Assembly (NCBI GenBank): GCA_964187785.1
Contig: OZ076409.1
Span: 75,270,001 to 75,334,000, forward strand
Length of the DNA: 64,000 nucleotides
Direction of reading: 5' to 3'
Source: Amphiscolops sp. MND2022
Lineage: Eukaryota
Shown: in pieces, positions 1 through 59,800 of the stretch
Layout: the number at the start of each line of letters is the position of its first letter
How positions within the stretch are numbered: position 1 is the stretch's first letter
Notes under the pieces: generated by a model
What the model saw: only the letters and a program-made list of their open reading frames with translations
Database searches by the model: none
What the model was told of the DNA's origin: nothing
Program-made: the position numbers and the translations under genes

Positions 1-742
1 TTGTGTTTAAAGGGTACAAATGTTTGGTGTTTTATGGATAACAGTACCTATTAGGTGTTTCGACGGTATGCAGTTGTGAACATAGTCATGAAACCTTGTG
101 GGGGGTAACGGTATATAGCACCGGAAGTCCAAAACGTTGGAGACAGGATAAGTTTTTTGGTTTTAAAACGTCTTTCGGCCTACTTTTGTCGACTATTATG
201 GTCTATTTTTGAAAAATAAAATTTTTCCATATAGTTTCAGAGACTCCGAAACCTCAACCAACATAACCGTTACCTTATGATAGCCTTTCAAGTTGGCCTG
301 GTGTCAACTTGGAAGGGCTATCCTTCAAAAATCATTAATCAAGTATGTTTTTGAGTATGTTTGTATTACTTTAGAATCAATTAGAGCTTAAAGGAAAGTT
401 TGCCAACGACAAAAACTATGTCGTGATGATTCCGTTATTAGAATACTTGTTAACAAAGTTTTAAAAACGTTGATTTTTTACATATCAAATGTGTCCTAAA
501 TGCCAGAAAACCTCTTTACCAAACAAATGGTATTGATTGAATTGTATATAACAGCTAATAAAAGTTCAAACTGAATATTACGTTTCATTTTGGAAGCTGA
601 AACGTCATTTTATAGTTTCATTAACGTCAACGCCACATACTTTACATCAACGCCCACCGTCCGTAGGCATGCCGAGGCATGCCTTTCGACGACGTATACC
701 AAATTCCTTTAACACAACACCCCCGAGCGCGGTAGCCGCTAG
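1..742 (+). mobile_element. Family A unit, 3' part (truncated by window edge)
   Basis: Matches the 3' part of 45636-47614. Carries the 44-bp hairpin (279-322), the TCAACGCC pair, the SphI palindrome (665-684) and a terminal CTAG. Confidence 0.7.
279..322 (+). other. Family A 44-bp subterminal bulged hairpin (representative)
   Basis: GATAGCCTTTCAAGTTGGC ctggt GTCAACTTGGAAGGGCTATC: 19 pairs including two G-T, with one bulged G. Also at ~2275, ~37332, ~39305, ~47151 and ~49147. Confidence 0.85.
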
Positions 743-2736
743 GTGCGGGGGGGTAACCCCAACTTTTTTCTTGGAGGAATCGGGTAGGGTCCTGATTCCG
801 AGTTCAGTGCCGCCAGCTATCGTTAAAAACCCATACCTTTTAAACCCGATCTCGGGAACTAACCACGCCCCTTCTTTAATTTTTTGGCCCCCACTCACTT
901 TTTGAGAGTAGATCGCCCCCCACTGGGTTCCAAGTTGGGCAAAAATGGAGGTCATGGGTAACGGGGACCGTTAAGGGGTAACTCAGGGGGTAAAATTTAT
1001 TTTTTGCGTCATATCTTTTCCCCCCGTGGATTTAGCGCTTCCGGTCAGCAGACAAAACCTCATGTACGTGATAAGGGGCCTCCGTAGGTCCAAACAAAAT
1101 TTTTCTATCATGCACCGTTACGGACTTGCCCCCCCGGCCCAACCGTTATTTTGCCGGAAATTGCCTTTTTTGACAGGAAAGGAGTCGTCTGAGCACGGAG
1201 TCGCTTGGTAATGTTTTGTAGTGCATCTGGAGACGTGTTGGGGGACATGTAGTTTGCCGACCCCAGTTTACCCCTCGGACGGGAAATGACCGTTATGTGA
1301 GTTTTAAAAATGCCCCCCTTCAATTTTCCCCGCAATTTCCGGTGTGAAGGAGTGGGAGTAGGGTGTCGGGTGCCATATATCAAAAGTAGGTTTAGACAAG
1401 GACCAACCGGAAACATGTGGTTTCGGACCCCCTGACCCAACCCGTTAGCCGCTATTAGGGTGATCGCCTCCTTTTTTTGCTGTTAAAACCGGAAAACGGG
1501 CATTGAGGGGTAAATATCTCGTGAACGCGTGGAGCAATCGTGTCCATCACTACTACAAGGTTTCATACCCATGATATGGTGCCTTCAGGGGGGCAAACAG
1601 ATTACCGCTATCTATCACCGTTACCGACTTGGCCCCCCAGCCTAACCGCTATGTGACCGGAAATTGCACTTTTTGAGCCCAAAGGGTCGATCCTAGCCGG
1701 GCAACGATAGGTAACATATTGTAGTACTCATTGAGACGAGTTGGGGGATCTAGTTTCAGTCACCCCCGTTACCCCTTGAGACCGGAAATGACCGTTATGT
1801 GAGTAGAATTGCAATTTTTATACCTTTTGAAGGGCATTTAGAAGCGGAAGGAATGGTAATAGGTGCTTGGACACTATATGATGTAATGGAGGTCGTGAGG
1901 AGAGCATTCGGAAGTAACCGTTACGTTGACCCCAAAGTCCCCCTGGTACCGTTAACAACCGGAAATGGCCAGATTTTGTGTTTGTAGGGTACAAATGTTT
2001 GGTATTTTATGGATAAAAGTACCTGGAAGGTGTTTTAAAGGCCTCCAGAAGTGAACATAGTCAAGAAACTTTGTGGGGGGTAACGGTATATAGCACCGGA
2101 AGTCCAAACCGTTAGTTACAGAATAGGTTTTTTGGTTTCAAAATGTCTTTAGGCGTAGTTTTGTGGGTGGAATCGTCATAATATCAACTAATACGGACTT
2201 TTTTCGGAAATAAAATTTTTTCACATTAGTTTCAGGGACCTCCAATGTTTCAGTCAACATAACCGTTACATTTTGATAGCCTTTCAAGTTGGCCTGGTGT
2301 CAACTTGGAAGGGCTATCCTTCTAAAATCGTTAATCAAGAGTGTTTTTGGGTAGGTATATGTTGCATTAGTACCAATTAGAGCTTCATCAACAGTTTGCC
2401 AACGGCAAAAACGATGTCGTGATAATTCCGTTATAAGAATATTAATTAACAAATTGTTTACAAAGTTGATTTTTTTCATTTAAAATGTGTCCTAATGCCA
2501 CCAAATTGAATAAAATAATAAATGGTATTGACTAAAACTAAATAACATTGAAAAAGAACATCAACATTTTTATTAGGTCTCATTATGGAAGCTGAAACCT
2601 CACGTTTTAACTTGATTAACGTCAACGCCACATACTTTACATCAACGCCCACCGTCTGTGGGCATGCCGAGGCATGCCCTTCGACGACGTATACCAAACA
2701 ACCTCCATATCTACACCCACCCGCGGTAGCAGCTAG
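743..2736 (+). mobile_element. Family A unit (1994 bp), putative non-autonomous cassette
   Basis: Starts GTGCGGGGGGGTAACCCC, has the GGGTAGGGTCC box 39 bp in, is rich in ACCGTTA/CCGGAAAT, and shares the 3' terminal block with family B. Mobility of family A is inferred from shared ends; no A-unit indel is seen. Confidence 0.7.
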
Positions 2737-3698
2737 GTGCCGGGATTTCTATTCGTTCGAGTATGTGGCGCGTGTGGGTAGGGCCCCTGGCGCGCTCTTT
2801 TATTTCGGGTACACCTACTCCAAATTCACGATGTGATTTCGACGATCTCGTAAACTAGCCACACGATTTGGCTGAAATTTGGCACACGTACCCCCCTCGG
2901 CACGGTGAAGATGATTTTCTACTGACGTTTTTCCCGCTAAACATTTTTTGTTGACCAAAATAACGGTTTTTGGGGTAAAATTTTCAACTTTTTTTAAATT
3001 TCATCTTATATCTCGCCACGGGTACACGCTAGCGCTTCCAAACCTTGCTGACGAAAGTTTGCAAACTGTCTCAGGAATGCTGTGTGAAATTTTCAGCTCA
3101 ATCGGACTTAAACTCGAGGAGATATAGCGTTTTTCCGGAGCGGGGGGGTTTCATTTTTCTAACGGTCCAGCTTATCTTTGCCATTTTTTCGAAAATGCAC
3201 TCGCCTAAAGGCCTCCCCTGGCCGGTTTTACTCCCAAAAAAACCATTTGGCCCTAAATACGGAGTTTCAGCGTTCTAGCATTCTCGGGCGAAAAGTTGTG
3301 GGACTTAGAAAATTTCAAAAATTTTCAAAAAAATTTTTTTTTGTTATTTGGGCCCCCAAAGTGGGGGAAAGGACCCCCCAACCATTAATTTGAGTGAATG
3401 CATGTGCAAAGCCCTTGTATAGAGGAGAAAAATGCCGTTTAGAACGTCTTTTTATCTTTACTCAACGTTGACTTATGACGTTTTGAAGGTGACCGTTAGA
3501 TATGGAAAATTGATGTTTTGAGTATTTATCTCATCTGAAAGCCATTGAGATACAACATGTTTTGCTCAAAACGGGTTTCATTGCAGTTTCGCTGTCTATT
3601 AACACCCTTTGGTGACTTTTGACATATTTTTGCTTTTATATAAAACCAATTTTTTGTGCATTTTTTCTTTTTTTTTCATCTAATATCTTGAAACAGTT

Positions 3699-3742
3699 GA
3701 GTACATTCCATCTCCCTTCCCGGGGGAGATGAGAATGTACTC
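3699..3742 (+). other. Family B 44-bp subterminal bulged hairpin (representative)
   Basis: GAGTACATTC CATCTCCC ttcccgg GGGAGATG A GAATGTACTC: arms are reverse complements with one unpaired A. Confidence 0.9.
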
Positions 3743-3907
3743 GCTAAAAGCCAAGAACTACGGCCAATACCTTCCCGAGCTATGCACTACAAATATTGCA
3801 TATGCATGCAGACCTTTTGATACATTTTTATCTTTGTAGATTGACTGGAAAAACCGAAAACTCTGTCCTGATTATACAAAGTTTCCTCACAACGACACAT
3901 GTTTACG

Positions 3908-3976
3908 TCAACGCCCCATAGTTCTTATCAACGCCCCCCGTCCGTGGGCATGCCGAGGCATGCCCTTCGACGACGT
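3908..3976 (+). other. 3' terminal block: 2x TCAACGCC, then GGGCATGCC-GA-GGCATGCCC palindrome, then TTCGACGACG (representative; in all intact A and B units)
   Basis: Nearly invariant across otherwise unalignable A and B bodies. The palindrome is at 3946-3965, and lies ~35-55 bp before the CTAG depending on the unit. Confidence 0.9.
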
Positions 3977-4006
3977 GCACCAAAATATATTCGAGCGCGG
4001 TAGCCG

Positions 4007-4013
4007 CTAGGTG
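4007..4013 (+). other. Junction / putative recombination or nicking site CTAG|GTG (representative of 47)
   Basis: CTRGGTG occurs at every intact unit boundary, and all four unit indels map to it. Confidence 0.85.
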
Positions 4014-7000
4014 CCGGGATTTCTATTCGATAAAGTATGTGGCGCGCCTTGGGTAGGGTCCCTTGCGCGCTCTTGGGTATGGTGTTCACCAGCTAGGAAA
4101 CAGGGGTCGATTTTTCGGGATCTCCTAAACTAGCCACACGATTTGGCTGAAATTTGGCACACGTACTCCCCTCGGCACGGTGAAGATGATTTCCTACTGA
4201 CATTTTTCCCGCAAAATTTTTTTTGTTGTCCAAAATAACGGTTTTTGGGGTAAAATTTTGAATTTTTTTTAAATTTTATCTTATATCTCGCCACGGGTTC
4301 ACGCTAGCGCTTCAAAACCCTGCTAAAGAAAGCTTGCAAACTGTCTCAGGAATGCGGTGTGAAATTTTCAGCTCAATCGGACTTAAACTCGGGGAGATAT
4401 AGAGTTTTTCCGGAGCGGGGGGGTTTCATTTTTCTAACGGTCCAGCTTATCTTTGCCATTTTTTCGAAAATGCACTCGCCTAAAGGCCTCCCCTGGCCGG
4501 TTTTATTCCCAGCAAAACCATTTGGCCCTAAATACGGAGTTTCAGCGTTCCAGCATTCCCGGGCGAAAAGTTGTGGGACTTAGAAAAGTTCAAAAAATTT
4601 CAAAAAAATTTTTTTCCGTTTTCCGCCCTCCCCCCCTAGGGGAAAAGACCCCCCAACCAGTAATTTGAGTGAATTCATGTGGAAAGGCCATGTTTAGAGG
4701 AGAAAAATACCGTTTAGATCGTCTTTTTATCTTAACTCAACGTTGACTTATGACGTTTTGAAGGTGATGTTTGGAGGTGTAAAGCACGTGAATAGTAAAC
4801 GTTATGAGTATTTATCTGATCTGAAAGCCATTGAGATGCAATATGGTTTGCTCAAAACGTAATTCATGGCAGTTTGGCAATCAATCAACACCCTTTGTTG
4901 TCGTTTGACAGACTTTTTTGTTGTTATAATAAAAAATTTTGTGTATTTATTCATTTTTTTCTCATCAAATAACTTGAAACAGTTGAGTACATTCCATCCC
5001 CCCCTTCCGGGGGAGATGAGAATGTACTCGCAAAAAGCACCGAACTACGACCCTTACCTTCCCGAGCTACGCAGTATAAGGACTACATATTGGTTCCGAC
5101 ATTTTCATAGAGTTAAATCTTGGTAATCTGTCTGGATATGCAGAAAAACCAGCACGTGCTTTTTTATACCAAGTTGCTCACAACGACAATTATTTTATAT
5201 CAACGCCCCCATATTTATCAACGCCCCCCGTCCGTGGGCATGCCGAGGCATGCCCTTCGACGACGTATACCAAGATATGTTCGAGCGCGTTAGCCTAGGT
5301 GGCCGTGTCTTTTCGACGTGCTTTTGCATTGAGGAGTGGGTAGGGCCCCGCGACGACCTAGAAGAATTGGATGCTCACCGAAACGTGCAGAATTCTACGA
5401 GATCTCATAGTTTGAGCCATACGATTTTTCTGAAATTTGGCATGTGGCCTGGAATTGGTGAGTAGGTAAAACGTGTAGAAGGTAATTTTTCCCAAATTCC
5501 ATTGTGAGAGGAGATATGGGCAAATAACGGACCCAAAATTGGGGAAAATGCACTTTTTTCAAGTTTGTCAGCCAATATCTCATTTCCAGGTGCCCGTAGC
5601 GTTCCGCACGTGGACGTCAATATTGCTCAACGCTGTTGGAAGAGTGCGTGGACAAATTTTGGTTCAAATCGGACTGAAACTTGGCGAGAAATTAACGGTT
5701 TTTTGGGCGTTTCCGGGGTAAATTTTTTAACGGTCCAGCTTATCTTTGCCATTTTTTCGAAAATGTACATGCCTAAAGGCCTCCCCCTGGCCGAATTTAC
5801 TCCCAGCAAACCCATTTGGCCCTAAATACGGAGTTTCAGCTGTCCAGCATTTCCGGGCGAAAAGTTGTGGGACTTTGAAAAATTTCAAAATTTTTCAAAA
5901 ATTTTTTTTTCCGTTTTCCGGGCCCCCCAATGAAGGGGAACGACCCCCCAACCAGTATTTTGAGTAATTTCATGAGGAAAGCCCATGTTTAGAGGAGAAA
6001 ATGCCGCTTAGAACGTCTTTTTATCTTAACTTGATGTTGACTTATGATCTTTTGAGTAGCGTATAACACGTGATCACAGTAGTGAAAACCCTAATTTTCA
6101 AAAATTTTCAAACCATAACGCATGAAAAGAACCTGGAAAAGGTTCCGATGGGTCAGTTGGGATGTCTGAAGCATGTGTACATTCCCGTAGTGTATAGCGG
6201 ATGTATTTGGGACTTATTAGAAATTGTGATATGTTTTATACAAGTCTTTGTTTCTCTTAGAATCTTATGCAGTTGAGTACATTCCATCTCCCTCTCAGGG
6301 GAGATGTGAATGTACGTTTGCCAAATGCCTTGTATATTTCACATCTTTGATGGATTCAAATAACTAAACAAGTGTGATTTGCGTTTGCCGAACCACTGCG
6401 ACAAAACATCCTAAATCTATAGCGAGTATGTATGGTTTTTGTCTTTAGTGTTTCGTCTTGTGTAGCCGACTTCCACATCCAAATATCAACGCCCGCCGTC
6501 CGTAGGCATGCCGAGGCATGCCTTTCGACGACGTATGCCAAATGCCCAATGCCACGCTGTCATTATCGCTAGGTGCCGGGATTTCTATTCGTTCGAGTAT
6601 GTGGCGCGTGTGGGTAGGGCCCCTGGCGCGCTCTTGTGTTTCGGGTTTTCCTACTCCTAAACCGCGTTCAGATTTTCGGGATCTCGTAAACTAGCCATAC
6701 GATTTGGCTGAAATTTGGCACACGTACCCCCCTCGGCACGGTGAAGATGATTCCCTACTGACGTTTTGCCCGCTAAACATTTTTTGTTGACCAAAATAAC
6801 GGTTTTTGGTGGAAAATTTTCAACTTTTTTTAAAATTCATCTTATATCTCGCCCCAGGTTTACGCTAGCGCTTCAAAACCTTGCTGACGAAAGTTTGCAA
6901 ACTGTCTCAGGAATGCGGTGTGAAATTTTCAGCTCAATCGGACTTAAACTCGAGGAGATATAGCGTTTTTCCGGAGCGGGGGGGTTTCATTTTTCTAACG

Positions 7001-7840
7001 GTCCAGCGTATCTTTGCCATTTTTTCGAAAATGCACTCGCCTAAAGGCCTCCCCTGGCCGGTTTTACTCCCAAAAAAACCATTTGGCCCTAAATACGGGG
7101 TTTCAGCGTTCTAGCATTTTCGGGCGAAAAGTTGTGGGACTTAGAATATTTCAAAAATTTTCAAAAAAATTTTTTTCCGTTATTTGGGCCCCCAATGTGG
7201 GGGAAAGGACCCCCCAACCAGTATTTTGAGTGAATGCATGTGCAAAGCGCTTGTTTAGAGGAGAAAAATGTCGTTTAGAACGTCTTTTTATCTTTACTCA
7301 ACGTTGACTTTTGTCGTTTTGAAGGTGACCGTTAGATATGGAAAATTGATGTTTTGAGTATTTATCTCATCTGAAAGCCATTGAGATACAACATGTTTTG
7401 CTCAAAACGTGTTTCATTGCAGTATCGCTGTCCATTAACACCCTTTGGTGACTTTTGACATATTTTTTTTATATATAATATCACTTTTTTGTGCATTTTT
7501 TCGTTTTTTTCTCATCTAATATCTTGAAACAGTTGAGTACATTCCATCTCCCTTCCCGGGGGAGATGAGAATGTACTCGCTAAAGGCCATGAACTACGGC
7601 CTATACCTTCCCGAGCTACGCACTACAATTATTGCATATGCATGCAGACCTTTTGATACATTTTTATCTTTATAGATTGACTGGACAAACTGAAAACTCT
7701 GTCCTGATTATACAAAGTTACCTCACAACGACACATGTTTACGTCAACGCTCCATACTTTACATCAACGCCCACCGTCCGTGGGCATGCCGAGGCATGCC
7801 CTTCGACGACGTATAGCCACTCAAACGCGGTAGCCGCTAG

Positions 7841-8899
7841 GTGGTCGGGTGTTTTACCTTTACAGAGTAGTGCGAGGCCGGGTAGGGTCCCGTGACGAGC
7901 TTGAAGAATAGCCTGCTAAAAATATACATGTTGGGGGGGGGGTCTACGGAGACGATCTCGAAAATGAACCGTTAGAATTTATTCAAACTTTGCATGCGGA
8001 CATAGAATCAAAATGTAAGAACTTTTTCCTACTGGCACTTTTCGCTCCATACCCTGTGACGGAAGTTATGAGCAAATGTATGTCGAAATCACCCATTTTT
8101 CGCATCTTTTCAGTCGCTGCTCCTCAGCCATTGGAGCCAATAGGCCGAAACTTTTTGTGTGAGGTACAAATGAAGTGGGCTACAAGATGGCCAAAAATTT
8201 TTGGCCAGGTCCTAATACATCGGGAAATATGATAGAAAATATACACCAAAAAAGGTGATTTTTTGACACTTTTTATCATGACTTCCGAAGTGCCCAATGG
8301 AATAGGTAGTGCCTATGGATAAAAATGAATGGTTTTATGTTTAATCGAAAGAGGAACAAATTTTGGTTTTTTTGGCCAAAAAAAAGTTCTACAAAAGTTC
8401 TACCAAAATTCGAAAAATTTAGAATTATTCCAAAAAAAAGGTTTTTTCGTCTTTTTTGATGTTTTTTCACATTTTGAGGTCAAAAACGAGGTACCCGAGC
8501 ACTTACACTGACTTTTTAGGGGAATTTGACACATTTAATTTTTATTTTTGGTTAATGATTACACTTTTAAAGTTTTAATCCCAAATTACTGCAATCTTTT
8601 CTCAGTTGTTGGAATTCTATGTTTGTTGGTAAATGACATGTAGAAAGATCGCCGATGTTCCGGGAGAACGCAAAGCGTTTCGGAGGAAGATTGGCGACAA
8701 ACGATAAAAGTCTGTGCAACTTATGTGCTTCCAATGAGGTGCTTGGTAGAATTATCAAGATGAAAAAATAACTTTTTTGAGGTAGTTTGTTGTGAAATGA
8801 AAACGATTAAAGTTTACAATTTTAAGTTGCACCAACTTCAGTTTCAATCAAGTATTGTCTGAATAGGCCTTACTGGTAGTTGGTACCTGCCTCCACTGG
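7841..8899 (+). mobile_element. Family C unit C1 (1059 bp)
   Basis: Starts GTGGTCGGG, has GGGTAGGGTCC 39 bp in, ends GCCTCCACTGG, and lacks the SphI block. Second copy at 55774-56833. Confidence 0.75.
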
Positions 8900-11800
8900 G
8901 TGGCCGGAAATTTTTTTTTCAGCAAAATCTTTGCCATTGGGGGAGGGGCCCCGGATGGCCAGTAGTACGGGATAGCTTCCTACCAAATCCAGGCGGAAAA
9001 AACGTGATTTCGGAAACTAGCCGTCAGAATTTGCTCAAATTTTGCATACGGCTTCCTATGACAATCCTAAGAACTAATCCCTACTGGCATTTTGCCCAAA
9101 AAACGCAAAAAGTTGGTCAAAATCTTAGTTTTTTGGTCAAAAAATGGCGTTTTTTCGAAAAAAATTTTTTTCAGAGACAATTACTCGTAACTGGTTCACC
9201 CAGCGCAAAAACGCCTAGCTGATTTATTGTTGGGCATTTCATGAGAAGTGCGTATACAAATTTTCGTCCAGATCGGAAACAAATTGACTAAGTATTAGCC
9301 GGAATTCGGACGCATTTTTTCGCAAATTTTTGAAAACCTAGTCTATCTCTGCCGTTTTTTGCCCAGATTTTTTTCCAGGTCCTCTCCTAAAGGCCTCCCC
9401 TGGCCGGTTTACTTCCCAGAAAAACCATTTGGCCCTAAATACGGAGTTTCAGCGTTCTAGCATTCCCGGGCGAAAAGATGTGGGACTTAGAAAAAATTCA
9501 AAATTTTTCAAAAAATTTTTTTTTCGTTTTCCGGCCCCCCAATGAAGGGGAACGACCCCCCAACGAGGATTTTTGGTGAATTCACGTGGAAAGGCCTTGT
9601 TTTGTGGAGCAAATTGCCGTTTAGAGCGACTTTTTATCTTAACTTGACGTTGACCTCTGTCGTTTTGAATTTGATATTAGTATGTGTTGAGCATGTGAAA
9701 AGTTGATGATTTCAGTTGTTCTCTCGTGTTCAAGCCATTGAGATACAAGCGGTAGTGATCAAAATGTGATTTATCGCAATTTGGTGGTGCTTTTGGTGTA
9801 TTTTGATTCTTTTAAATAAAAAGTTGTTCTTTATATATTTGGTGTATTGATTCAAATGAACAAGAAACAGTTGAGTACATTTCATCTCCCCCCTTGTGGG
9901 GGAGATGAGGATGTACCCGCTAAATGACACGCACAATGGCCCAATTTTATTTTTATGCGACGTTTTCTAGGCTTTTGCGCAAGCCCACTAAAATTTAGAC
10001 TGGTTTCCTTTTCTTTTACTCCAAAATTTTCCGTACTAACCACCTTACGCACCACCAGCTCAACGTAACATCTGTAACGTCAACGCCACACACTCTCACT
10101 AACGCCCACCGTCCGTGGGCATGCCGAGGCATGCCCTTCGACGACGTATGCCAAATAGCGCCACAGGGCGCAAACTTGTCCGCTAGGTGCCGGGATTTCC
10201 ATTCGATAAGGAATTCTGCGCGTGTGGGTAGGGCCCCTGGCGCGCTCCTGTGTTTTCGGTTTTCCTACTCCTAAATAGACCCCCTGAATTCCGGGATCTC
10301 CCAAACTATCCATACGATTTGGCTGAAATTTGGCACACGTACCCCCCTCGGCACGGTGAAGATGATTTCCTACTGACGTTTTTCCCGCTAAACATTTTTT
10401 GTTGACCAAAATAACGGTTTTTGGGGTAAAATTTTGAACTTTTTTTAAATTTCATCTTATATCTCGCCACGGGTACACGCTAGCGCTTCCAAACCTTGCT
10501 GACGAAAGTTTGCAAACTGTCTCAGGAATGCTGTGTGAAATTTTCAGCTCAATCGGACTTAAACTCGAGGAGATATAGCGTTTTCCCGGAGCGGGGGGGT
10601 TTCAATTTTCTAACGGTCCAGCTTATCTTTGCCATTTTTTCGAAAATGCACTCGCCTAAAGGCCTCCCCTGGCCGGTTTTATTCCCAACAAAACCATTTG
10701 GCCCTAAATACGGAGTTTCAGCGTTCCAGCATTCCCGGGCGAAAAGTTGTGGGACTTAGAAAAGTTCAAAAATTTTCAAAAAAAAATTTTTCCGTTATTT
10801 GGGCCCTCAAAGTGGGGGAAAAGACCCCCCAACCAGTAAAGCAAGTGAATGCATGTGGAAAGCCCTTGTTTAGACGAGAAAAATGCCGTCTAGAACGTCT
10901 TTTTATCTTAACTTGACATTGACTTTTGTCGTTTTGAAGGTGACCGTTAGATACGGAAAATTGATGTTTTGAGTATTTATCCCATCTGAAAGCCATTGAG
11001 ATACAACATGTTTTGCTCAAAACGTGTTTCATTGCAGTTTCGCTGTCCATTATCACCCTTTGGTGTCTTTTCACGTAATTTTCGTTTCTATAATAACAAT
11101 TTTTTTGTGTATTTATTCATTTTATTCTCATCAAATAACTTGAAACAGTTGAGTACATTCCATCTCCCTTCCCGGGGGAGATGAGAATGTACTCGCTAAA
11201 GGTCAGGAACTACGGTCTATATCTTCCACAACACAAATGGGATTGCAAATGGTTTCAGTTTGTCGCAGAAAACTTCTTTTTGCCCTCTGTGACTCGACAA
11301 AATGAACGTTTCTTACTTACTTTGAAACTCAGCATACCACAACTCATCTCTAACGTCAGCGCCCCCCTACTTGCATCAACGCCCACCGTCCGTGGGCATG
11401 CCGAGGCATGCCCTTCGACGACGTATACCAAGATATACCTGGAGCGCGGTAGCCGCTAGGTGGCCGGAAATTTTTTTTTTCATCAAAATCTTTGCCATTG
11501 GGGGAGGGGCCCCGGATGGCCAGTAGTACGGGATAGCTTCCTACCAAATCCAGATGGAAAAAACGTGATTTCGGAAACTAGCCGTCAGAATTTGCTCAAA
11601 TTTTGCATACGGCTTCCTATGACAATCCTAAGAACTAATCCCTACTAGCATTTTGCCCAAAAAACGCAAAAAGTTGGTCAAAATCTTAGTTTTTTGGTCG
11701 AAAAATGGCGTTTTTTCGAAAAAATTTTTTTTCAGAGACAATTACTCGTAACTGGTTCACCCAGCGCAAAAACGCCTAGCTGATTTATTGTTGAGGACTT

Positions 11801-35800: not shown

Positions 35801-35819
35801 CCATAACGCGTTAGCCTAG
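8900..35819 (+). mobile_element. Run of 21 family B units (1262-1311 bp) of intermixed subfamilies
   Basis: 5' types: B1 (GTGCCGG..., most units), B2 (GTGGCCGTGTC; 26864, 28149), B3 (GTGGCCGGAAATT; 8900, 11460, 15325), B4 (body CACAGCTCCGTTGGAAC; 17886, 33271). Unit 11460-12745 is precisely absent in copy 2. Confidence 0.8.
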
Positions 35820-48600: not shown

Positions 48601-49608
48601 CATTGAGACGAGTTGGGGGATCTAGTTTCAGTCACCCCCGTTACCCCTTGAGACCGGAAATGACCGTTATGTGAGTAGAATTGCAATTTTTATACCTTTT
48701 GAAGGGCATTTAGAAGCGGAAGGAATGGTAATAGGTGCTTGGACACTATATGATGTAATGGAGGTCGTGAGGAGAGCATTCGGAAGTAACCGTTACGTTG
48801 ACCCCAAAGTCCCCCTGGTACCGTTAACAACCGGAAATGGCCAGATTTTGTGTTTGTAGGGTACAAATGTTTGGTATTTTATGGATAAAAGTACCTGGAA
48901 GGTGTTTTAAAGGCCTCCAGAAGTGAACATAGTCAAGAAACTTTGTGGGGGGTAACGGTATATAGCACCGGAAGTCCAAACCGTTAGTTACAGAATAGGT
49001 TTTTTGGTTTCAAAATGTCTTTAGGCGTAGTTTTGTGGGTGGAATCGTCATAATATCAACTAATACGGACTTTTTTCGGAAATAAAATTTTTTCACATTA
49101 GTTTCAGGGACCTCCAATGTTTCAGTCAACATAACCGTTACATTTTGATAGCCTTTCAAGTTGGCCTGGTGTCAACTTGGAAGGGCTATCCTTCTAAAAT
49201 CGTTAATCAAGAGTGTTTTTGGGTAGGTATATGTTGCATTAGTACCAATTAGAGCTTCATCAACAGTTTGCCAACGGCAAAAACGATGTCGTGATAATTC
49301 CGTTATAAGAATATTAATTAACAAATTGTTTACAAAGTTGATTTTTTTCATTTAAAATGTGTCCTAATGCCACCAAATTGAATAAAATAATAAATGGTAT
49401 TGACTAAAACTAAATAACATTGAAAAAGAACATCAACATTTTTATTAGGTCTCATTATGGAAGCTGAAACCTCACGTTTTAACTTGATTAACGTCAACGC
49501 CACATACTTTACATCAACGCCCACCGTCTGTGGGCATGCCGAGGCATGCCCTTCGACGACGTATACCAAACAACCTCCATATCTACACCCACCCGCGGTA
49601 GCAGCTAG
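45636..49608 (+). mobile_element. Two family A units (45636-47614, 1979 bp; 47615-49608, 1994 bp)
   Basis: Both start GTGCGGGGGGGTAACCCC; the second matches 743-2736 at offset 46872. Confidence 0.7.
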
Positions 49609-52600
49609 GTGCCGGGATTTCTATTCGATAAAGTATGTGGCGCGCCTTGGGTAGGGTCCCTTGCGCGCTCTTGGGTATGGTGTTCACCAGCTAGGAAACA
49701 GGGGTCGATTTTTCGGGATCTCCTAAACTAGCCACACGATTTGGCTGAAATTTGGCACACGTACTCCCCTCGGCACGGTGAAGATGATTTCCTACTGACA
49801 TTTTTCCCGCAAAATTTTTTTTGTTGTCCAAAATAACGGTTTTTGGGGTAAAATTTTGAATTTTTTTTAAATTTTATCTTATATCTCGCCACGGGTTCAC
49901 GCTAGCGCTTCAAAACCCTGCTAAAGAAAGCTTGCAAACTGTCTCAGGAATGCGGTGTGAAATTTTCAGCTCAATCGGACTTAAACTCGGGGAGATATAG
50001 AGTTTTTCCGGAGCGGGGGGGTTTCATTTTTCTAACGGTCCAGCTTATCTTTGCCATTTTTTCGAAAATGCACTCGCCTAAAGGCCTCCCCTGGCCGGTT
50101 TTATTCCCAGCAAAACCATTTGGCCCTAAATACGGAGTTTCAGCGTTCCAGCATTCCCGGGCGAAAAGTTGTGGGACTTAGAAAAGTTCAAAAAATTTCA
50201 AAAAAATTTTTTTCCGTTTTCCGCCCTCCCCCCCTAGGGGAAAAGACCCCCCAACCAGTAATTTGAGTGAATTCATGTGGAAAGGCCATGTTTAGAGGAG
50301 AAAAATACCGTTTAGATCGTCTTTTTATCTTAACTCAACGTTGACTTATGACGTTTTGAAGGTGATGTTTGGAGGTGTAAAGCACGTGAATAGTAAACGT
50401 TATGAGTATTTATCTGATCTGAAAGCCATTGAGATGCAATATGGTTTGCTCAAAACGTAATTCATGGCAGTTTGGCAATCAATCAACACCCTTTGTTGTC
50501 GTTTGACAGACTTTTTTGTTGTTATAATAAAAAATTTTGTGTATTTATTCATTTTTTTCTCATCAAATAACTTGAAACAGTTGAGTACATTCCATCCCCC
50601 CCTTCCGGGGGAGATGAGAATGTACTCGCAAAAAGCACCGAACTACGACCCTTACCTTCCCGAGCTACGCAGTATAAGGACTACATATTGGTTCCGACAT
50701 TTTCATAGAGTTAAATCTTGGTAATCTGTCTGGATATGCAGAAAAACCAGCACGTGCTTTTTTATACCAAGTTGCTCACAACGACAATTATTTTATATCA
50801 ACGCCCCCATATTTATCAACGCCCCCCGTCCGTGGGCATGCCGAGGCATGCCCTTCGACGACGTATACCAAGATATGTTCGAGCGCGTTAGCCTAGGTGG
50901 CCGTGTCTTTTCGACGTGCTTTTGCATTGAGGAGTGGGTAGGGCCCCGCGACGACCTAGAAGAATTGGATGCTCACCGAAACGTGCAGAATTCTACGAGA
51001 TCTCATAGTTTGAGCCATACGATTTTTCTGAAATTTGGCATGTGGCCTGGAATTGGTGAGTAGGTAAAACGTGTAGAAGGTAATTTTTCCCAAATTCCAT
51101 TGTGAGAGGAGATATGGGCAAATAACGGACCCAAAATTGGGGAAAATGCACTTTTTTCAAGTTTGTCAGCCAATATCTCATTTCCAGGTGCCCGTAGCGT
51201 TCCGCACGTGGACGTCAATATTGCTCAACGCTGTTGGAAGAGTGCGTGGACAAATTTTGGTTCAAATCGGACTGAAACTTGGCGAGAAATTAACGGTTTT
51301 TTGGGCGTTTCCGGGGTAAATTTTTTAACGGTCCAGCTTATCTTTGCCATTTTTTCGAAAATGTACATGCCTAAAGGCCTCCCCCTGGCCGAATTTACTC
51401 CCAGCAAACCCATTTGGCCCTAAATACGGAGTTTCAGCTGTCCAGCATTTCCGGGCGAAAAGTTGTGGGACTTTGAAAAATTTCAAAATTTTTCAAAAAT
51501 TTTTTTTTCCGTTTTCCGGGCCCCCCAATGAAGGGGAACGACCCCCCAACCAGTATTTTGAGTAATTTCATGAGGAAAGCCCATGTTTAGAGGAGAAAAT
51601 GCCGCTTAGAACGTCTTTTTATCTTAACTTGATGTTGACTTATGATCTTTTGAGTAGCGTATAACACGTGATCACAGTAGTGAAAACCCTAATTTTCAAA
51701 AATTTTCAAACCATAACGCATGAAAAGAACCTGGAAAAGGTTCCGATGGGTCAGTTGGGATGTCTGAAGCATGTGTACATTCCCGTAGTGTATAGCGGAT
51801 GTATTTGGGACTTATTAGAAATTGTGATATGTTTTATACAAGTCTTTGTTTCTCTTAGAATCTTATGCAGTTGAGTACATTCCATCTCCCTCTCAGGGGA
51901 GATGTGAATGTACGTTTGCCAAATGCCTTGTATATTTCACATCTTTGATGGATTCAAATAACTAAACAAGTGTGATTTGCGTTTGCCGAACCACTGCGAC
52001 AAAACATCCTAAATCTATAGCGAGTATGTATGGTTTTTGTCTTTAGTGTTTCGTCTTGTGTAGCCGACTTCCACATCCAAATATCAACGCCCGCCGTCCG
52101 TAGGCATGCCGAGGCATGCCTTTCGACGACGTATGCCAAATGCCCAATGCCACGCTGTCATTATCGCTAGGTGCCCGGATTTCTATTCATTAAAGTATGT
52201 TGCGCGTGTGGGTAGGGCCCCGTGGCGCGCTCTTGTGTCCCTGTTCTAAAATCTGTAATTTCCGGCAGCATTCTGAGCGATTTTCTAAACTATCCATACG
52301 ATTTGGCTAAAATTTGGCACACGTACCCCCCTCGGCACGGTGAAGATGATTTCCTACTGACGTTTTTCCCGCAAAATTTTTTTTGTTGTCCAAAATAACG
52401 GTTTTTGGGGTAAAATTTTGAACTTTTTTTAAATTTCATCTGATATCTCGCCACGGGTTTACGCTAGCGCTTCAAAACCCTGCTAAAGAAAGCTTGCAAA
52501 CTGTCTCAGGAATGCGGTGTGAAATTTTCAGCTCAATCGGACTTAAACTCAGGGAGATATAGCGTTTTTCCGGAGCGGGGGGGTTTCATTTTTCTAACGG

Positions 52601-54726
52601 TCCAGCTTATCTTTGCCATTTTTTCGAAAATGCACTCGTCTAAAGGACTCCCCTGGCCGGTTTTATTCCCAGGAAAACCATTTGGCCCTAAATACGGAGT
52701 TTCAGCGTTCCAGCATTTCCGGGCGAAAAGTTGTGGGACTTAGAAAAGTTCAAAAGTTTTCAAAAAATTTTTTTCCGTTTTCCGCCTTCCCCCCCTAGGG
52801 GAAAAGACCCCCCAACCAGTAATTTGAGTGAATTCATGTGGAAAGGCCATGTTTAGAGGAGAAAAATACCGTTTAGATCGTCTTTTTATCTTTATTCAAC
52901 GTTGACTTATGACGTTTTGAAGGTGATGTTTGGAGGTGTGAAGCACGTGAAAAGTAAACGTTATGAGTATTTATCTGATCTGAAAGCCATTGAGATGCAA
53001 CCTGTTTTGCTCAAAACGTAATTCATATCAGTTTGGTAGTCAATCAACACCCTTTGTTGTCATTTGACATCTTTTTTTGTTGATATAAGAAAAAATTTTG
53101 TGTATTTATTCATTTTTTTCTCATCAAATAACTTGAAACAGTTGAGTACATTCCATCCCCCCTTCACGGGGGAGATGAGAATGTACTCGCAAAAAGCCCC
53201 GAACTACGGCCCTTACCTTCCTGAGCTACGCAGTATAAAGATTGCATATTGGTTCCGACATTTTGATAGAGTTATATCTTGGTAATCTGTCTGGGTATGC
53301 AGAAAAACAAGCACGTGCTTTTTTATACCAAGTTGCTCACAACGACATTTATTTTATATCAACGCCCCCATATTTATCAACGCCCCCCGTCCGTGGGCAT
53401 GCCGAGGCATGCCCTTCGACGACGTATACCAAGATATACTTCGAGCGCGTTAGCCTAGGTGCCGGGATTTCTATTCGTTCGAGTATGTGGCGCGTGTGGG
53501 TAGGGCCCCTGGCGCGCTCTTGTGTTTCGGGTTTTCCTACTCCTAAACCGCGTTCAGATTTTCGGGATCTCGTAAACTAGCCATACGATTTGGCTGAAAT
53601 TTGGCACACGTACCCCCCTCGGCACGGTGAAGATGATTCCCTACTGACGTTTTGCCCGCTAAACATTTTTTGTTGACCAAAATAACGGTTTTTGGTGGAA
53701 AATTTTCAACTTTTTTTAAAATTCATCTTATATCTCGCCCCAGGTTTACGCTAGCGCTTCAAAACCTTGCTGACGAAAGTTTGCAAACTGTCTCAGGAAT
53801 GCGGTGTGAAATTTTCAGCTCAATCGGACTTAAACTCGAGGAGATATAGCGTTTTTCCGGAGCGGGGGGGTTTCATTTTTCTAACGGTCCAGCGTATCTT
53901 TGCCATTTTTTCGAAAATGCACTCGCCTAAAGGCCTCCCCTGGCCGGTTTTACTCCCAAAAAAACCATTTGGCCCTAAATACGGGGTTTCAGCGTTCTAG
54001 CATTTTCGGGCGAAAAGTTGTGGGACTTAGAATATTTCAAAAATTTTCAAAAAAATTTTTTTCCGTTATTTGGGCCCCCAATGTGGGGGAAAGGACCCCC
54101 CAACCAGTATTTTGAGTGAATGCATGTGCAAAGCGCTTGTTTAGAGGAGAAAAATGTCGTTTAGAACGTCTTTTTATCTTTACTCAACGTTGACTTTTGT
54201 CGTTTTGAAGGTGACCGTTAGATATGGAAAATTGATGTTTTGAGTATTTATCTCATCTGAAAGCCATTGAGATACAACATGTTTTGCTCAAAACGTGTTT
54301 CATTGCAGTATCGCTGTCCATTAACACCCTTTGGTGACTTTTGACATATTTTTTTTATATATAATATCACTTTTTTGTGCATTTTTTCGTTTTTTTCTCA
54401 TCTAATATCTTGAAACAGTTGAGTACATTCCATCTCCCTTCCCGGGGGAGATGAGAATGTACTCGCTAAAGGCCATGAACTACGGCCTATACCTTCCCGA
54501 GCTACGCACTACAATTATTGCATATGCATGCAGACCTTTTGATACATTTTTATCTTTATAGATTGACTGGACAAACTGAAAACTCTGTCCTGATTATACA
54601 AAGTTACCTCACAACGACACATGTTTACGTCAACGCTCCATACTTTACATCAACGCCCACCGTCCGTGGGCATGCCGAGGCATGCCCTTCGACGACGTAT
54701 AGCCACTCAAACGCGGTAGCCGCTAG
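49609..54726 (+). mobile_element. Run of 4 family B units (49609, 50897, 52171, 53459)
   Basis: 49609, 50897 and 53459 match 4011, 5299 and 6573. Unit 52171-53458 has no counterpart at this position in copy 1. Confidence 0.8.
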
Positions 54727-55773
54727 GTGGTCCGGGGTAGTTCCCCACATTATTTAGGGCGAGGCCGGGGAGGGTCCCGATGCCGAGCTTAATTTTCGCG
54801 TGTCGAACTATATCATCTAGCACACCAGTCAAAAAACGGCGATTTTCGAATTGAACCGATAAAACTTCTTTAAACTTTGCATGTGTACTTATCTTGCCGA
54901 TGTACAAATGATGTTCTGCTGGTCAAACATGACCCTATTACTTGGCGGGAAGTTATGAGCAAATGATCGGTTTTTTCACCCTGTTTCGGTACTTTTTCGC
55001 TGCGATATCTGCAGCATGTGGATACAATTGGCTGATACTTTGCATGCGAGGCATAAATGTTGTCAGGTGTTTGCATGCCAAAAATCATTAGGCTGGTGAC
55101 ACTAGGCTGGGAGATAGAAGTAGAAAAAGTAGTGGAAAATTGTGAATTCTCCGGTCATCGCGTCATAACTTCCGAACTTTTATACAGATGATGTTTTCTT
55201 TAGCGGTAGCAGTACAGTCGATGTGTTTTCAACATCGCGTGGTCAGGATAAAAAATAAAAAATAAAAAAGTTCTACAAAAGTTCTACAAAAATTCTAAAA
55301 ATTGCGAATTTTTTCAAAAAAAAATTTTTTTCGGATTCCATTGTATTTTTATACCAGGAATTCAAAAATCACATTATTTATCGTGTCAACGGCGCCAAAA
55401 TGGGTTTATTTTTAATATTGACCGCTTTCACCAGCTTGATATACCAGTTTCAGTAAGTATTTGAAAAATACTCAGGGTTGAGGCAAATGCATAAGTAGCA
55501 CGATTTTAAAACGTAATTTTATTTGTCACCGGTGTTCCGAGGGATGCACAGCAGCACGCAGGAACAACGGTGACCCGGAAGAAAGGCTGTAGATACTTGT
55601 TACGACCGAAGGCAGTCACTGTTTAGTTTTGTTCGACATGATTATGTACGTCGTTGCGATGTGCATCGGCAAAAATTCACATCAGTGACCCCAAAGTGGA
55701 ACAAGTTATACATGAATTGAGAACAGGCAGTACCGTTCGGCCCCCTGGTAATTGGTAGCTTTGCCTCCACTGG
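54727..55773 (+). mobile_element. Family C unit C2 (1047 bp), single copy in the window
   Basis: Starts GTGGTCCGGGG and ends GCCTCCACTGG. Shares AAAAAAGTTCTACAAAAGTTCTAC, AAACTTTGCATG and CGGAAGTTATGAGCAAATG with C1 but is otherwise strongly diverged. Absent from copy 1. Confidence 0.8.
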
Positions 55774-56833
55774 GTGGTCGGGTGTTTTACCTTTACAGAG
55801 TAGTGCGAGGCCGGGTAGGGTCCCGTGACGAGCTTGAAGAATAGCCTGCTAAAAATATACATGTTGGGGGGGGGGGTCTACGGAGACGATCTCGAAAATG
55901 AACCGTTAGAATTTATTCAAACTTTGCATGCGGACATAGAATCAAAATGTAAGAACTTTTTCCTACTGGCACTTTTCGCTCCATACCCTGTGACGGAAGT
56001 TATGAGCAAATGTATGTCGAAATCACCCATTTTTCGCATCTTTTCAGTCGCTGCTCCTCAGCCATTGGAGCCAATAGGCCGAAACTTTTTGTGTGAGGTA
56101 CAAATGAAGTGGGCTACAAGATGGCCAAAAATTTTTGGCCAGGTCCTAATACATCGGGAAATATGATAGAAAATATACACCAAAAAAGGTGATTTTTTGA
56201 CACTTTTTATCATGACTTCCGAAGTGCCCAATGGAATAGGTAGTGCCTATGGATAAAAATGAATGGTTTTATGTTTAATCGAAAGAGGAACAAATTTTGG
56301 TTTTTTTGGCCAAAAAAAAGTTCTACAAAAGTTCTACCAAAATTCGAAAAATTTAGAATTATTCCAAAAAAAAGGTTTTTTCGTCTTTTTTGATGTTTTT
56401 TCACATTTTGAGGTCAAAAACGAGGTACCCGAGCACTTACACTGACTTTTTAGGGGAATTTGACACATTTAATTTTTATTTTTGGTTAATGATTACACTT
56501 TTAAAGTTTTAATCCCAAATTACTGCAATCTTTTCTCAGTTGTTGGAATTCTATGTTTGTTGGTAAATGACATGTAGAAAGATCGCCGATGTTCCGGGAG
56601 AACGCAAAGCGTTTCGGAGGAAGATTGGCGACAAACGATAAAAGTCTGTGCAACTTATGTGCTTCCAATGAGGTGCTTGGTAGAATTATCAAGATGAAAA
56701 AATAACTTTTTTGAGGTAGTTTGTTGTGAAATGAAAACGATTAAAGTTTACAATTTTAAGTTGCACCAACTTCAGTTTCAATCAAGTATTGTCTGAATAG
56801 GCCTTACTGGTAGTTGGTACCTGCCTCCACTGG
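55774..56833 (+). mobile_element. Family C unit C1, second copy (1060 bp)
   Basis: Matches 7841-8899 with one extra G in the poly-G run. Confidence 0.75.
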
Positions 56834-59800
56834 GTGGCCGGAAATTTTTTTTTCAGCAAAATCTTTGCCATTGGGGGAGGGGCCCCGGATGGCCAGTAGT
56901 ACGGGATAGCTTCCTACCAAATCCAGGCGGAAAAAACGTGATTTCGGAAACTAGCCGTCAGAATTTGCTCAAATTTTGCATACGGCTTCCTATGACAATC
57001 CTAAGAACTAATCCCTACTGGCATTTTGCCCAAAAAACGCAAAAAGTTGGTCAAAATCTTAGTTTTTTGGTCAAAAAATGGCGTTTTTTCGAAAAAAATT
57101 TTTTTCAGAGACAATTACTCGTAACTGGTTCACCCAGCGCAAAAACGCCTAGCTGATTTATTGTTGGGCATTTCATGAGAAGTGCGTATACAAATTTTCG
57201 TCCAGATCGGAAACAAATTGACTAAGTATTAGCCGGAATTCGGACGCATTTTTTCGCAAATTTTTGAAAACCTAGTCTATCTCTGCCGTTTTTTGCCCAG
57301 ATTTTTTTCCAGGTCCTCTCCTAAAGGCCTCCCCTGGCCGGTTTACTTCCCAGAAAAACCATTTGGCCCTAAATACGGAGTTTCAGCGTTCTAGCATTCC
57401 CGGGCGAAAAGATGTGGGACTTAGAAAAAATTCAAAATTTTTCAAAAAATTTTTTTTTCGTTTTCCGGCCCCCCAATGAAGGGGAACGACCCCCCAACGA
57501 GGATTTTTGGTGAATTCACGTGGAAAGGCCTTGTTTTGTGGAGCAAATTGCCGTTTAGAGCGACTTTTTATCTTAACTTGACGTTGACCTCTGTCGTTTT
57601 GAATTTGATATTAGTATGTGTTGAGCATGTGAAAAGTTGATGATTTCAGTTGTTCTCTCGTGTTCAAGCCATTGAGATACAAGCGGTAGTGATCAAAATG
57701 TGATTTATCGCAATTTGGTGGTGCTTTTGGTGTATTTTGATTCTTTTAAATAAAAAGTTGTTCTTTATATATTTGGTGTATTGATTCAAATGAACAAGAA
57801 ACAGTTGAGTACATTTCATCTCCCCCCTTGTGGGGGAGATGAGGATGTACCCGCTAAATGACACGCACAATGGCCCAATTTTATTTTTATGCGACGTTTT
57901 CTAGGCTTTTGCGCAAGCCCACTAAAATTTAGACTGGTTTCCTTTTCTTTTACTCCAAAATTTTCCGTACTAACCACCTTACGCACCACCAGCTCAACGT
58001 AACATCTGTAACGTCAACGCCACACACTCTCACTAACGCCCACCGTCCGTGGGCATGCCGAGGCATGCCCTTCGACGACGTATGCCAAATAGCGCCACAG
58101 GGCGCAAACTTGTCCGCTAGGTGCCGGGATTTCCATTCGATAAGGAATTCTGCGCGTGTGGGTAGGGCCCCTGGCGCGCTCCTGTGTTTTCGGTTTTCCT
58201 ACTCCTAAATAGACCCCCTGAATTCCGGGATCTCCCAAACTATCCATACGATTTGGCTGAAATTTGGCACACGTACCCCCCTCGGCACGGTGAAGATGAT
58301 TTCCTACTGACGTTTTTCCCGCTAAACATTTTTTGTTGACCAAAATAACGGTTTTTGGGGTAAAATTTTGAACTTTTTTTAAATTTCATCTTATATCTCG
58401 CCACGGGTACACGCTAGCGCTTCCAAACCTTGCTGACGAAAGTTTGCAAACTGTCTCAGGAATGCTGTGTGAAATTTTCAGCTCAATCGGACTTAAACTC
58501 GAGGAGATATAGCGTTTTCCCGGAGCGGGGGGGTTTCAATTTTCTAACGGTCCAGCTTATCTTTGCCATTTTTTCGAAAATGCACTCGCCTAAAGGCCTC
58601 CCCTGGCCGGTTTTATTCCCAACAAAACCATTTGGCCCTAAATACGGAGTTTCAGCGTTCCAGCATTCCCGGGCGAAAAGTTGTGGGACTTAGAAAAGTT
58701 CAAAAATTTTCAAAAAAAAATTTTTCCGTTATTTGGGCCCTCAAAGTGGGGGAAAAGACCCCCCAACCAGTAAAGCAAGTGAATGCATGTGGAAAGCCCT
58801 TGTTTAGACGAGAAAAATGCCGTCTAGAACGTCTTTTTATCTTAACTTGACATTGACTTTTGTCGTTTTGAAGGTGACCGTTAGATACGGAAAATTGATG
58901 TTTTGAGTATTTATCCCATCTGAAAGCCATTGAGATACAACATGTTTTGCTCAAAACGTGTTTCATTGCAGTTTCGCTGTCCATTATCACCCTTTGGTGT
59001 CTTTTCACGTAATTTTCGTTTCTATAATAACAATTTTTTTGTGTATTTATTCATTTTATTCTCATCAAATAACTTGAAACAGTTGAGTACATTCCATCTC
59101 CCTTCCCGGGGGAGATGAGAATGTACTCGCTAAAGGTCAGGAACTACGGTCTATATCTTCCACAACACAAATGGGATTGCAAATGGTTTCAGTTTGTCGC
59201 AGAAAACTTCTTTTTGCCCTCTGTGACTCGACAAAATGAACGTTTCTTACTTACTTTGAAACTCAGCATACCACAACTCATCTCTAACGTCAGCGCCCCC
59301 CTACTTGCATCAACGCCCACCGTCCGTGGGCATGCCGAGGCATGCCCTTCGACGACGTATACCAAGATATACCTGGAGCGCGGTAGCCGCTAGGTGCCGG
59401 GATTTCCATTCGATAAGGAATTCTGCGCGTGTGGGTAGGGCCCCTGGCGCGCTCCTGTGTTTTCGGTTTTCCTACTCCAAATTCACACCCCAGTTATCTC
59501 CGATCTCGTAAACTATCCATACGATTTGGCTGAAATTTGGCACACGTACCCCCCTCGGCACGGTGAAGATGATTTCCTACTGACGTTTTTCCCGCTAAAC
59601 ATTTTTTGTTGACCAAAATAACGGTTTTTGGGGTAAAATTTTCAACTTTTTTTAAATTTTATCTTATATCTCGCCACGGGTACACGCTAGCGCTTCCAAA
59701 CCTTGCTGACGAAAGTTTGCAAACTGTCTCAGGACTGCTGTGTGAAATTTTCAGCTCAATCGGACTTAAACTCGAGGAGATATAGCGTTTTTCCGGAGCG

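Follow-up and report, generated by a model that had tools for sequence, protein, structure and literature searches.

The window analysed here, a stretch of 64,000 nucleotides from Amphiscolops sp. MND2022 (C1:75270001-75334000, contig OZ076409.1, in a genome of 1.07 Gb), is filled by a head-to-tail array of gene-less Helitron-like units, part of which is present in two copies. The analysis was extended by 250 kb on the left side and by 210 kb on the right (524 kb), and over this whole length the array was unbroken, with all its junctions on one strand. A first pass gave 349 junctions (336 CTAG-GTG, 11 CTGG-GTG, one CTAG-ATG and one CTTG-GTG), to which three were added by hand. The 351 units fell into 61 clusters at 90% identity. 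No two adjacent units were identical (0 of 350 pairs), and neighbours of the same family were enriched at 90% identity (58 against 32.5 +/- 4.9 in shuffled orders). The units have a Helitron-like layout, starting with GTG, carrying a subterminal hairpin and ending in CTAG or CTGG. The subterminal palindrome is common to most families and to the autonomous unit described below, some families being devoid of the hairpin; genome-wide the hairpin pattern has 4241 occurrences. The outer stem arms of the left-terminal hairpin vary between families. The window contained no open reading frame (ORF) longer than 136 amino acids (aa), Rfam gave 0 matches and Tandem Repeats Finder three trivial rows; tblastn of Rep-helicase (RepHel) proteins against eight of the longer units gave no match.

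The two copies form a tandem duplication of ~44 kb (Table 1). Exact-match chaining of positions 1-20000 of the window against 44000-64000 gave the identical blocks 1-2755=46873-49627, 4006-6577=49604-52175, 6569-7846=53455-54732, 7933-11462=55867-59396, 12742-15840=59390-62488 and 15842-17352=62490-64000. Over the full duplication 11 whole units, of 1-2 kb each, at eight sites differ between the copies and all eight sites are at junctions, while the small changes across the 36,584 shared bp amount to two substitutions and three single-base homopolymer indels. An earlier note on the window had reported four of these whole-unit differences, and we recovered them at junctions, with ambiguity intervals of 24, 9, 7 and 7 bp that intersect, as it had said, in GGTG; the small mutations that it had put at about two are exactly two in that region, an indel in a G run at 7943 and a substitution at 15841. 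The other four sites (S0, S5, S6 and S7) came from the extension and also break at junctions. Longer homology went unused, a further point of the note that we could confirm, each of its sites offering 11-53 longer identity tracts, the longest of 24-113 bp. Under a null model of homologous crossover weighted by identity-tract length its four sites had p = 0.025, 0.007, 0.034 and 0.011 (product ~7e-8, multiplied by hand), and the seven simple sites together gave 1.9e-13, the eighth holding a different unit in each copy.

Table 1 Features of the array, of its duplicated copies and of the autonomous unit, in window coordinates (negative values lie upstream of the window)
Feature	Position	Strand	Remarks
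Head-to-tail array of gene-less Helitron-like units	1..64000	+	47 junctions: 44 CTAG-GTG, 3 CTGG-GTG
Tandem duplication	copy 1 -4704..39584; copy 2 about 39590..82375		from comparison of the extended sequence
Duplication breakpoint	39580..39595	+	inside units; 5-nt insert repeating nearby sequence
Site S0, two units in copy 2 only	41778..44352	+	ambiguity interval CGCTAG^GTG
Site S1, unit in copy 1 only	2737..4010	+	ambiguity interval GCTAG^GTGCCGGGATTTCTATTCG, 24 bp
Site S2, unit in copy 2 only	52171..53458	+	CTAG^GTGCC, 9 bp; exact copy 163 kb upstream in other flanks
Site S3, unit in copy 2 only	54727..55773	+	G^GTGGTC, 7 bp; CTGG end, without the common hairpin
Site S4, unit in copy 1 only	11460..12745	+	CTAG^GTG, 7 bp
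Site S5, unit in copy 1 only	19148..20458	+	24-bp interval spanning the junction
Site S6, two units in copy 1 only	23006..25577	+	17-bp interval
Site S7, different unit per copy at one junction	33271..34532 (copy 1); 76037-77323 (copy 2)	+
Left-terminal motif GGG(T/G)AGGG(T/C)CCC	2776..2787	+	loop and inner stem of bulged hairpin, ~40 nt inside 5' ends
Subterminal palindrome GGGCATGCC-GA-GGCATGCCC	3946..3965	+	about 45-60 nt before 3' CTAG
Example junction CTAG^GTG	4007..4013	+	3' end of one unit, 5' end of the next, regenerated target
Autonomous unit (L045), 12,226 bp	-107424..-95199 (C1:75162576-75174801)	+ (strand of the array)	ORF1 2349 aa, ORF2 308 aa

The breakpoint of the duplication itself joins 1790 of the 1971 bp of a 2-kb unit to the last 919 of the 1286 bp of a 1.3-kb unit. 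A second tandem duplication, of 3808 bp, lies at -197260..-189867 (C1 ~75.073-75.080 Mb); it broke inside homologous units and left a chimeric unit, which is a route to mosaic unit families. As both breakpoints are inside units, breaks away from junctions are detectable where they exist. Counted per junction, turnover amounts to 11 events in ~64 junction-copies (32 per copy) against two substitutions in 73 kb, all of them very small counts; if the events are so assigned, it would be several thousand times the substitution rate per base, by arithmetic on these counts.

The position of the break was narrowed from GGTG at array ends. Where hairpin ends in CTAG were followed by a base other than G (n=42), this base was A in 30 cases, T in 11 and C in one, and the second base after the end was T in 28 of the 30 loci read, which had not been selected for T. 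After CTAG-G in cases other than GTG, T was found in 31 (GT and then a non-G) and another base in two. One common 5' end is preceded by a base other than G once in the genome (its total occurrences were not counted), and where position -2 was not A all 15 cases still read CTNG. Site S3, with its CTGG-ending unit behind a CTAG, sets the break to the right of the A/G. From array ends and S3 together the break thus lies to one side or the other of the lone G in CTAG, CTAG^GTG, and GGTG did not survive as a recombination core. Helitron precedent (PMC4778049) would place it at CTAG^GTG.

These loci show the target consensus CTDG^DT, without target duplication. Two insertions 13 bp apart were found within a unit of the B type, at CTTG^GT and CTGG^GT, and their flanks match intact units (19 matches within six edits, three of them mutually identical), so that insertion took place without duplication or loss. 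A set of 45 non-redundant unit bodies, among which some blocks are still shared, contains CTAG 150 times, followed by DT twice on the plus strand and 54 times on the minus strand. Such a purge of CTAG-DT from the plus strand would be expected if a single-strand enzyme cuts the motif on that strand. The hexamer CTAGGT is found inside the array at 335 junctions and at four interior positions.

An enzyme that could do this is coded within the same continuous array, in an autonomous unit that sits ~95-107 kb upstream of the window. Its 5' end is of the B type (69-80% identity over ~780 bp to the five window units tested), its first 22 bases at least are those of S2-type units, and it also shares their hairpin and CTAG 3' end. 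In a profile search ORF1 matched Helitron_like_N (expectation value, E, 1.2e-7) and PIF1 (E 4.3e-7), and it contains the motifs FFLTLTCN, EFQ..PHIH, YIAKY and GRPGSGKT. The predicted structure of the Rep part (predicted local distance difference test, pLDDT, 75.6) had the Helraiser transposase 7LCC as its sole PDB match at E<=0.001 (E 2.7e-7); a single-sequence search did not reach Helraiser at E<=1. The family profile matches Pif1 helicases and Helraiser's helicase, and at its C-terminus the GIY-YIG domain of SLX1 (E 4.8e-12); PF01541 was above cut-off in 10 of the 17 homologues scanned. ORF2 gave a low-confidence model (pLDDT 53.8) with RPA70 as best match (E 9e-4). By these predictions ORF1 is an HUH Rep-Pif1-GIY-YIG-like protein with an intact frame and ORF2 is RPA-like.

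Two further copies of the autonomous unit differ from it at 6 and 8 of 4026 bases. Across the genome the Rep region was matched 121 times (118 of 479 candidates scored), many of these loci having open frames of more than 2000 aa, and among 20 autonomous loci sampled (33-100% Rep identity) a junction was seen on at least one side in 17 and on both sides in 12. In one subfamily (C1:75619001, C3:2783001 and C9:3375001) Rep and helicase lie in consecutive frames, of 1682-1694 aa and then 592 or 231 aa, probably due to an intron, and in three other families the long frames stop before the GIY-YIG region. Homologues outside this genome include proteins of Perkinsus olseni and Hyalella azteca; no relative was found in viral contigs. 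In a distant metagenomic relative with 25% Rep identity (P0061) the GGGGAGGGTCCC bulged hairpin recurs at the beginning of a contig of ~13.5 kb (L279:193-223), upstream of the ORFs (z -2.16); the terminus of this relative is not GTG. The hairpin is likewise found at the start of another contig (L278), and seven of the 15 cluster members listed are on contigs of 13.0-14.0 kb.

The earlier note had proposed an enzymatic, site-specific strand exchange that is recent or ongoing. Enzymatic, site-specific and recent can be kept because all eight sites are at junctions, substitutions are so few over the shared sequence and an intact enzyme gene lies in the array. A crossover in the sense of a recombinase is the poorer reading, the enzyme found being a single-strand HUH Rep-helicase and PF00589 giving no tyrosine-recombinase match on C1; "strand exchange" would fit in a broad sense, HUH enzymes being known to catalyse site-specific integration and recombination (PMC6049929). 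Nor does reshuffling alone account for the array, since exact copies of nine independent single units stand between other, unrelated flanks on both sides (13 pairs were listed, some redundant through the duplication), which indicates copy-in. Another array, near C1:3.61 Mb and some 72 Mb off, contains a copy of the S3 unit with 99.9% identity over 1045 aligned bp; the first 745 bp of the S3 unit are 84.5% identical to the 5' end of another autonomous family.

The reading that we prefer, with a probability of roughly 85%, is that whole units are inserted one at a time at CTAG^GT by the elements' HUH Rep-helicase and that each insertion recreates the target. It starts from what can be seen directly, i.e. 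the termini, CTDG^DT without duplication, the intact Rep-Pif1-GIY-YIG gene, precise insertion and exact copies in new flanks. By analogy with Helraiser, RepHel would nick at the 5' junction of a unit and peel off the plus strand, a second cut at the next CTAG would lead to a circle with a head-to-tail joint, and the copy would be transferred into a CTAG^GT target. The Helraiser enzyme forms and cleaves precise head-to-tail joints (PMC5876387). An array junction could serve as both origin and target because its sequence equals that of the circle joint. With GT as its first and CTAG as its last bases, the element would leave perfect targets at its own ends on each insertion and, these being shared by many families, arrays would grow from within, up to hundreds of kilobases. 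Neighbours that are never identical, together with exact single units in new flanks, speak for copy-in one at a time and not for concatemers or a recombinase crossover; a rolling-circle concatemer origin was ruled out by the 0 of 350 identical neighbours. The exact dispersed copies would also lend indirect support to circular intermediates and replicative transposition, and the same enzyme may have produced some of the 11 differences by precise excision.

We also lean, somewhat less firmly, towards the view that resident junctions are preferred by more than the six-base motif would explain, with the left-terminal hairpins as a possible means. The ~94,000 CTAGGT estimated for the genome (extrapolated from 295 kb of non-array loci) against ~4,000 junction-type ends counted suggest such an added preference. 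Hairpin ends were followed by GTG[GC] in 3943 cases and by the other classes counted in 75, although the 3943 were not all checked as unit starts and GTG[AT] was outside the count. More tentative, and more doubtful than true as a whole, is a wider proposal in which these elements would be an undescribed ancient clade of Rep-Pif1-GIY-YIG elements (Perkinsus, an amphipod, metagenomes) with an origin-specific integrase that reads the left-terminal hairpins, makes scarless insertions of 1-15 kb at CTAG^GTG and lets dozens of families (down to ~33% protein identity) share one target, in integron-like safe-harbour arrays of megabase size whose junctions would turn over thousands of times faster than substitutions.

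Apart from the limits on the GTG[GC] count, several observations weigh against these readings. Within the array a plain preference for CTAGGT is enough to place all 11 differences (11 of 11) at junctions (P=0.88), the hexamer having been purged from unit bodies, and it is only under the broad motif CTDG^DT that this outcome would be unlikely (1.8e-5). The genome-wide junction excess could be a product of local hopping, of segmental duplication or of selection that removes dispersed copies. Folding of the terminal hairpins barely beats shuffled sequences (mean z -0.95 over 42 families). CTA^G and CTAG^ are indistinguishable by sequence alone, and three of the 20 autonomous loci showed no junction under the pattern used. 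Polymorphic units are no more similar to other copies than shared ones (medians 98.4 and 98.8%, p=0.62), and nearest-neighbour dating did not separate insertion from deletion at the eight sites. Homologous exchange also acts in the array, as seen in the 3.8-kb duplication and the chimera near -197 kb. Nicking and integration by the Rep-helicase are predictions.

Some of this could be turned towards a related but unlikely alternative, in which the same RepHel is at work and the 11 differences are mainly precise excisions between junctions, of a relaxase type from origin to origin, with copy-in a minor process. Two adjacent units are involved at two of the eight sites, polymorphic units show no measurable sign of being younger than shared ones, site-specific recombination is among the activities of HUH proteins (PMC6049929) and clean Helitron excision has been suggested in maize (PMC2267711). 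However, copies of the S2 and S3 units stand elsewhere at 100% and 99.9% identity, insertion into a known empty site was seen directly, no empty donor sites were observed for Helraiser (PMC5876387), and arrays this large need a net gain. Two haplotypes wrongly assembled in tandem would make a quite improbable explanation. The region is highly repetitive, and homopolymer indels of the kind that long-read error yields make up three of the five small differences, but at the joint at 39584 two unit types are fused into a chimera, with a short insert copied from the vicinity. We take such a chimera and insert to be typical of a real repair event, presumably end-joining. Even if the copies were allelic, the unit differences would remain real junction-precise polymorphisms.

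The model implied by the earlier note, a trans-acting tyrosine or serine recombinase that moves units as cassettes at a GGTG core in the manner of an integron, would account for scarless gains and losses of whole units and for the short direct repeat at both unit ends, and a few tyrosine-recombinase matches are present in the genome. It is very improbable nevertheless. The coding units encode a HUH Rep-helicase, the base after CTAG is freely G, A or T and the target is purged from one strand only. The PF00589 model, which is weak for eukaryotic enzymes, gave four matches, on C3 and a small contig and none on C1, and the 524 kb contained no ORF of at least 200 aa of the tyrosine-recombinase type; with four matches in the genome and 0 on C1, a tyrosine recombinase was rejected as the driver. 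Ordinary homologous or microhomology-mediated deletion in a satellite, with breakpoints at junctions by chance, does have in its favour that such exchange happens in the array, as the two duplication breakpoints inside units show. We give it practically no credence, since it was already rejected by the tract-weighted null over seven sites and all eight indel sites are at junctions, with intervals down to 7 bp.

As for the recombinase matches themselves, at C3:2081591-2086792 the tyrosine recombinase domain is found three times in tandem within one open frame of 1055 aa, which we take to be Crypton-like. Another match is on the small contig C1368, which has many overlapping frames and is possibly not from the host.

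Arrays were located in the middle of C1 and near the ends of C1, C2 and C3, and their identity as centromeres was supported neither way. The region of ~6 Mb on C1 is a cluster of arrays, their continuity not being shown; C1 ~70.6-76.5 Mb holds dozens of RepHel matches clustered on the plus strand, with frames of more than 2000 aa, and samples of 10 kb between 70.8 and 76.22 Mb contained junctions in 14 of 16 cases (13 on the plus and one on the minus strand), against 0 of 4 outside. RepHel clusters are likewise found at C2 102-103.9 Mb and C3 2.4-3.9 Mb. At C1:23975300-23979640 there is a local inversion, with two plus-strand junctions facing a minus-strand run inside one array.

How Helitrons choose their targets is an open question, and so is whether tandem arrays are concatemers or the result of repeated insertion. 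Few active Helitrons are available for testing, and here there are many intact RepHel genes, a target rule readable from array ends and a natural duplication that records 11 unit changes at base precision against two substitutions. This makes a directly testable case of a transposon with its own ends as target and of a route from transposon to megabase-scale array. It is possibly also a scarless, site-preferring HUH integrase for eukaryotes; if the shared origin-specific integrase is true, the intact copies would be candidates for site-specific integration of large cargo in eukaryotic cells.

Judged by their predicted enzyme, their termini and the absence of duplication, the elements are Helitron-like. 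They share with the superfamily a two-tyrosine HUH Rep fused to a Pif1/SF1B helicase, the lack of target-site duplication and non-autonomous units with the termini of autonomous ones. Replitrons are set apart by a one-tyrosine (Y1) Rep without helicase (PMC10288648), against the two-tyrosine (Y2) Rep with Pif1 found here. Compared with HLE1, as defined in PMC11417382, and Helraiser (PMC4778049, PMC5876387), they also have a 3' hairpin with CTRR, here 45-60 nt from the end and missing in some families, an RPA-like second gene and a head-to-tail joint equal to the circle joint. Unlike these they start with GTG and not TC, insert at CTDG^DT and not between A and T, and have a C-terminal GIY-YIG, and their HUH motif is longer, EFQ-x4-N[LF]xHxH against EWQKRGLxHxH. 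Their Rep forms a separate branch: in a quick tree of 49 Rep cores the 36 family rows made up one side of a branch with a Shimodaira-Hasegawa-like approximate likelihood ratio test (SH-aLRT) value of 100, apart from the HLE1- and HLE2-type proteins of the genome. This tree had references from this genome alone (for HLE1, three HLE1-like proteins labelled by Pfam score and motif), flagged long branches and left out the Paramecium clade. The HLE1-type and DUF6570-bearing HLE2-type Helitrons of the genome are dispersed across many contigs, and one of them has a weak JAB domain match below cut-off.

With HLE2 (Helitron2/Helentron, likewise as defined in PMC11417382) the elements have in common a large RepHel, an OTU domain in some relatives and hairpins near both ends, and one Sphagnum HLE2 family has been reported with a captured GIY-YIG (PMC11417382). 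Unlike HLE2, they have no DUF6570 (0 of 18 family proteins against 6 of 6 HLE2-type controls from the same genome), no match to AP endonuclease and no target between T and T; nor were short asymmetric terminal inverted repeats (TIRs) noticed by eye, no dedicated search being made. This suggests a Helitron lineage outside HLE1 and HLE2 that would be missed by finders based on TC...CTRR or on TIRs. We found no Helitrons with GTG/CTAG ends, a CTDG^DT target or self-targeted mixed arrays in the literature searched; Repbase, subscription papers and the HELIANO supplements (19 genomes with unclassified elements) were outside the search and may contain the group. The accessible portions of 10.64898/2026.09.17.752431, PMC6431247, PMC10288648 and PMC13404089 held nothing closer.

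Head-to-tail Helitrons are known as pairs or as arrays read as concatemers, whereas here many families are mixed and every junction is a consensus target. In maize r1 a mixed head-to-tail pair abuts at CTAG and consecutive insertion was argued (PMC2267711), tandem arrays of bats and plants are cited in PMC5876387, self-insertion is reported in Fusarium (PMC5148889) and Hydractinia has subtelomeric Helitron-derived repeats (PMC11934779). The third-clade Helitrons of Paramecium (PMC13085455) are similarly a divergent clade with its own target specificity and oriented clustering, but they target telomeric repeats, and GIY is not in the main text of that paper. IS91 (10.1101/2025.01.24.634351) also uses HUH rolling-circle transposition with oriented insertion and no duplication, at a tetranucleotide target by its start end that is close to the element's own terminal cleavage tetranucleotide; it is prokaryotic and has no helicase, and self-built arrays of hundreds of mixed units are undescribed in the accessible part of that source. 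Among HUH enzymes, TrwC and the Rep of adeno-associated virus (AAV) likewise use copies of their own origin as sites of integration (PMC6049929), although, unlike the enzyme proposed here, they are not transposases of arrays.

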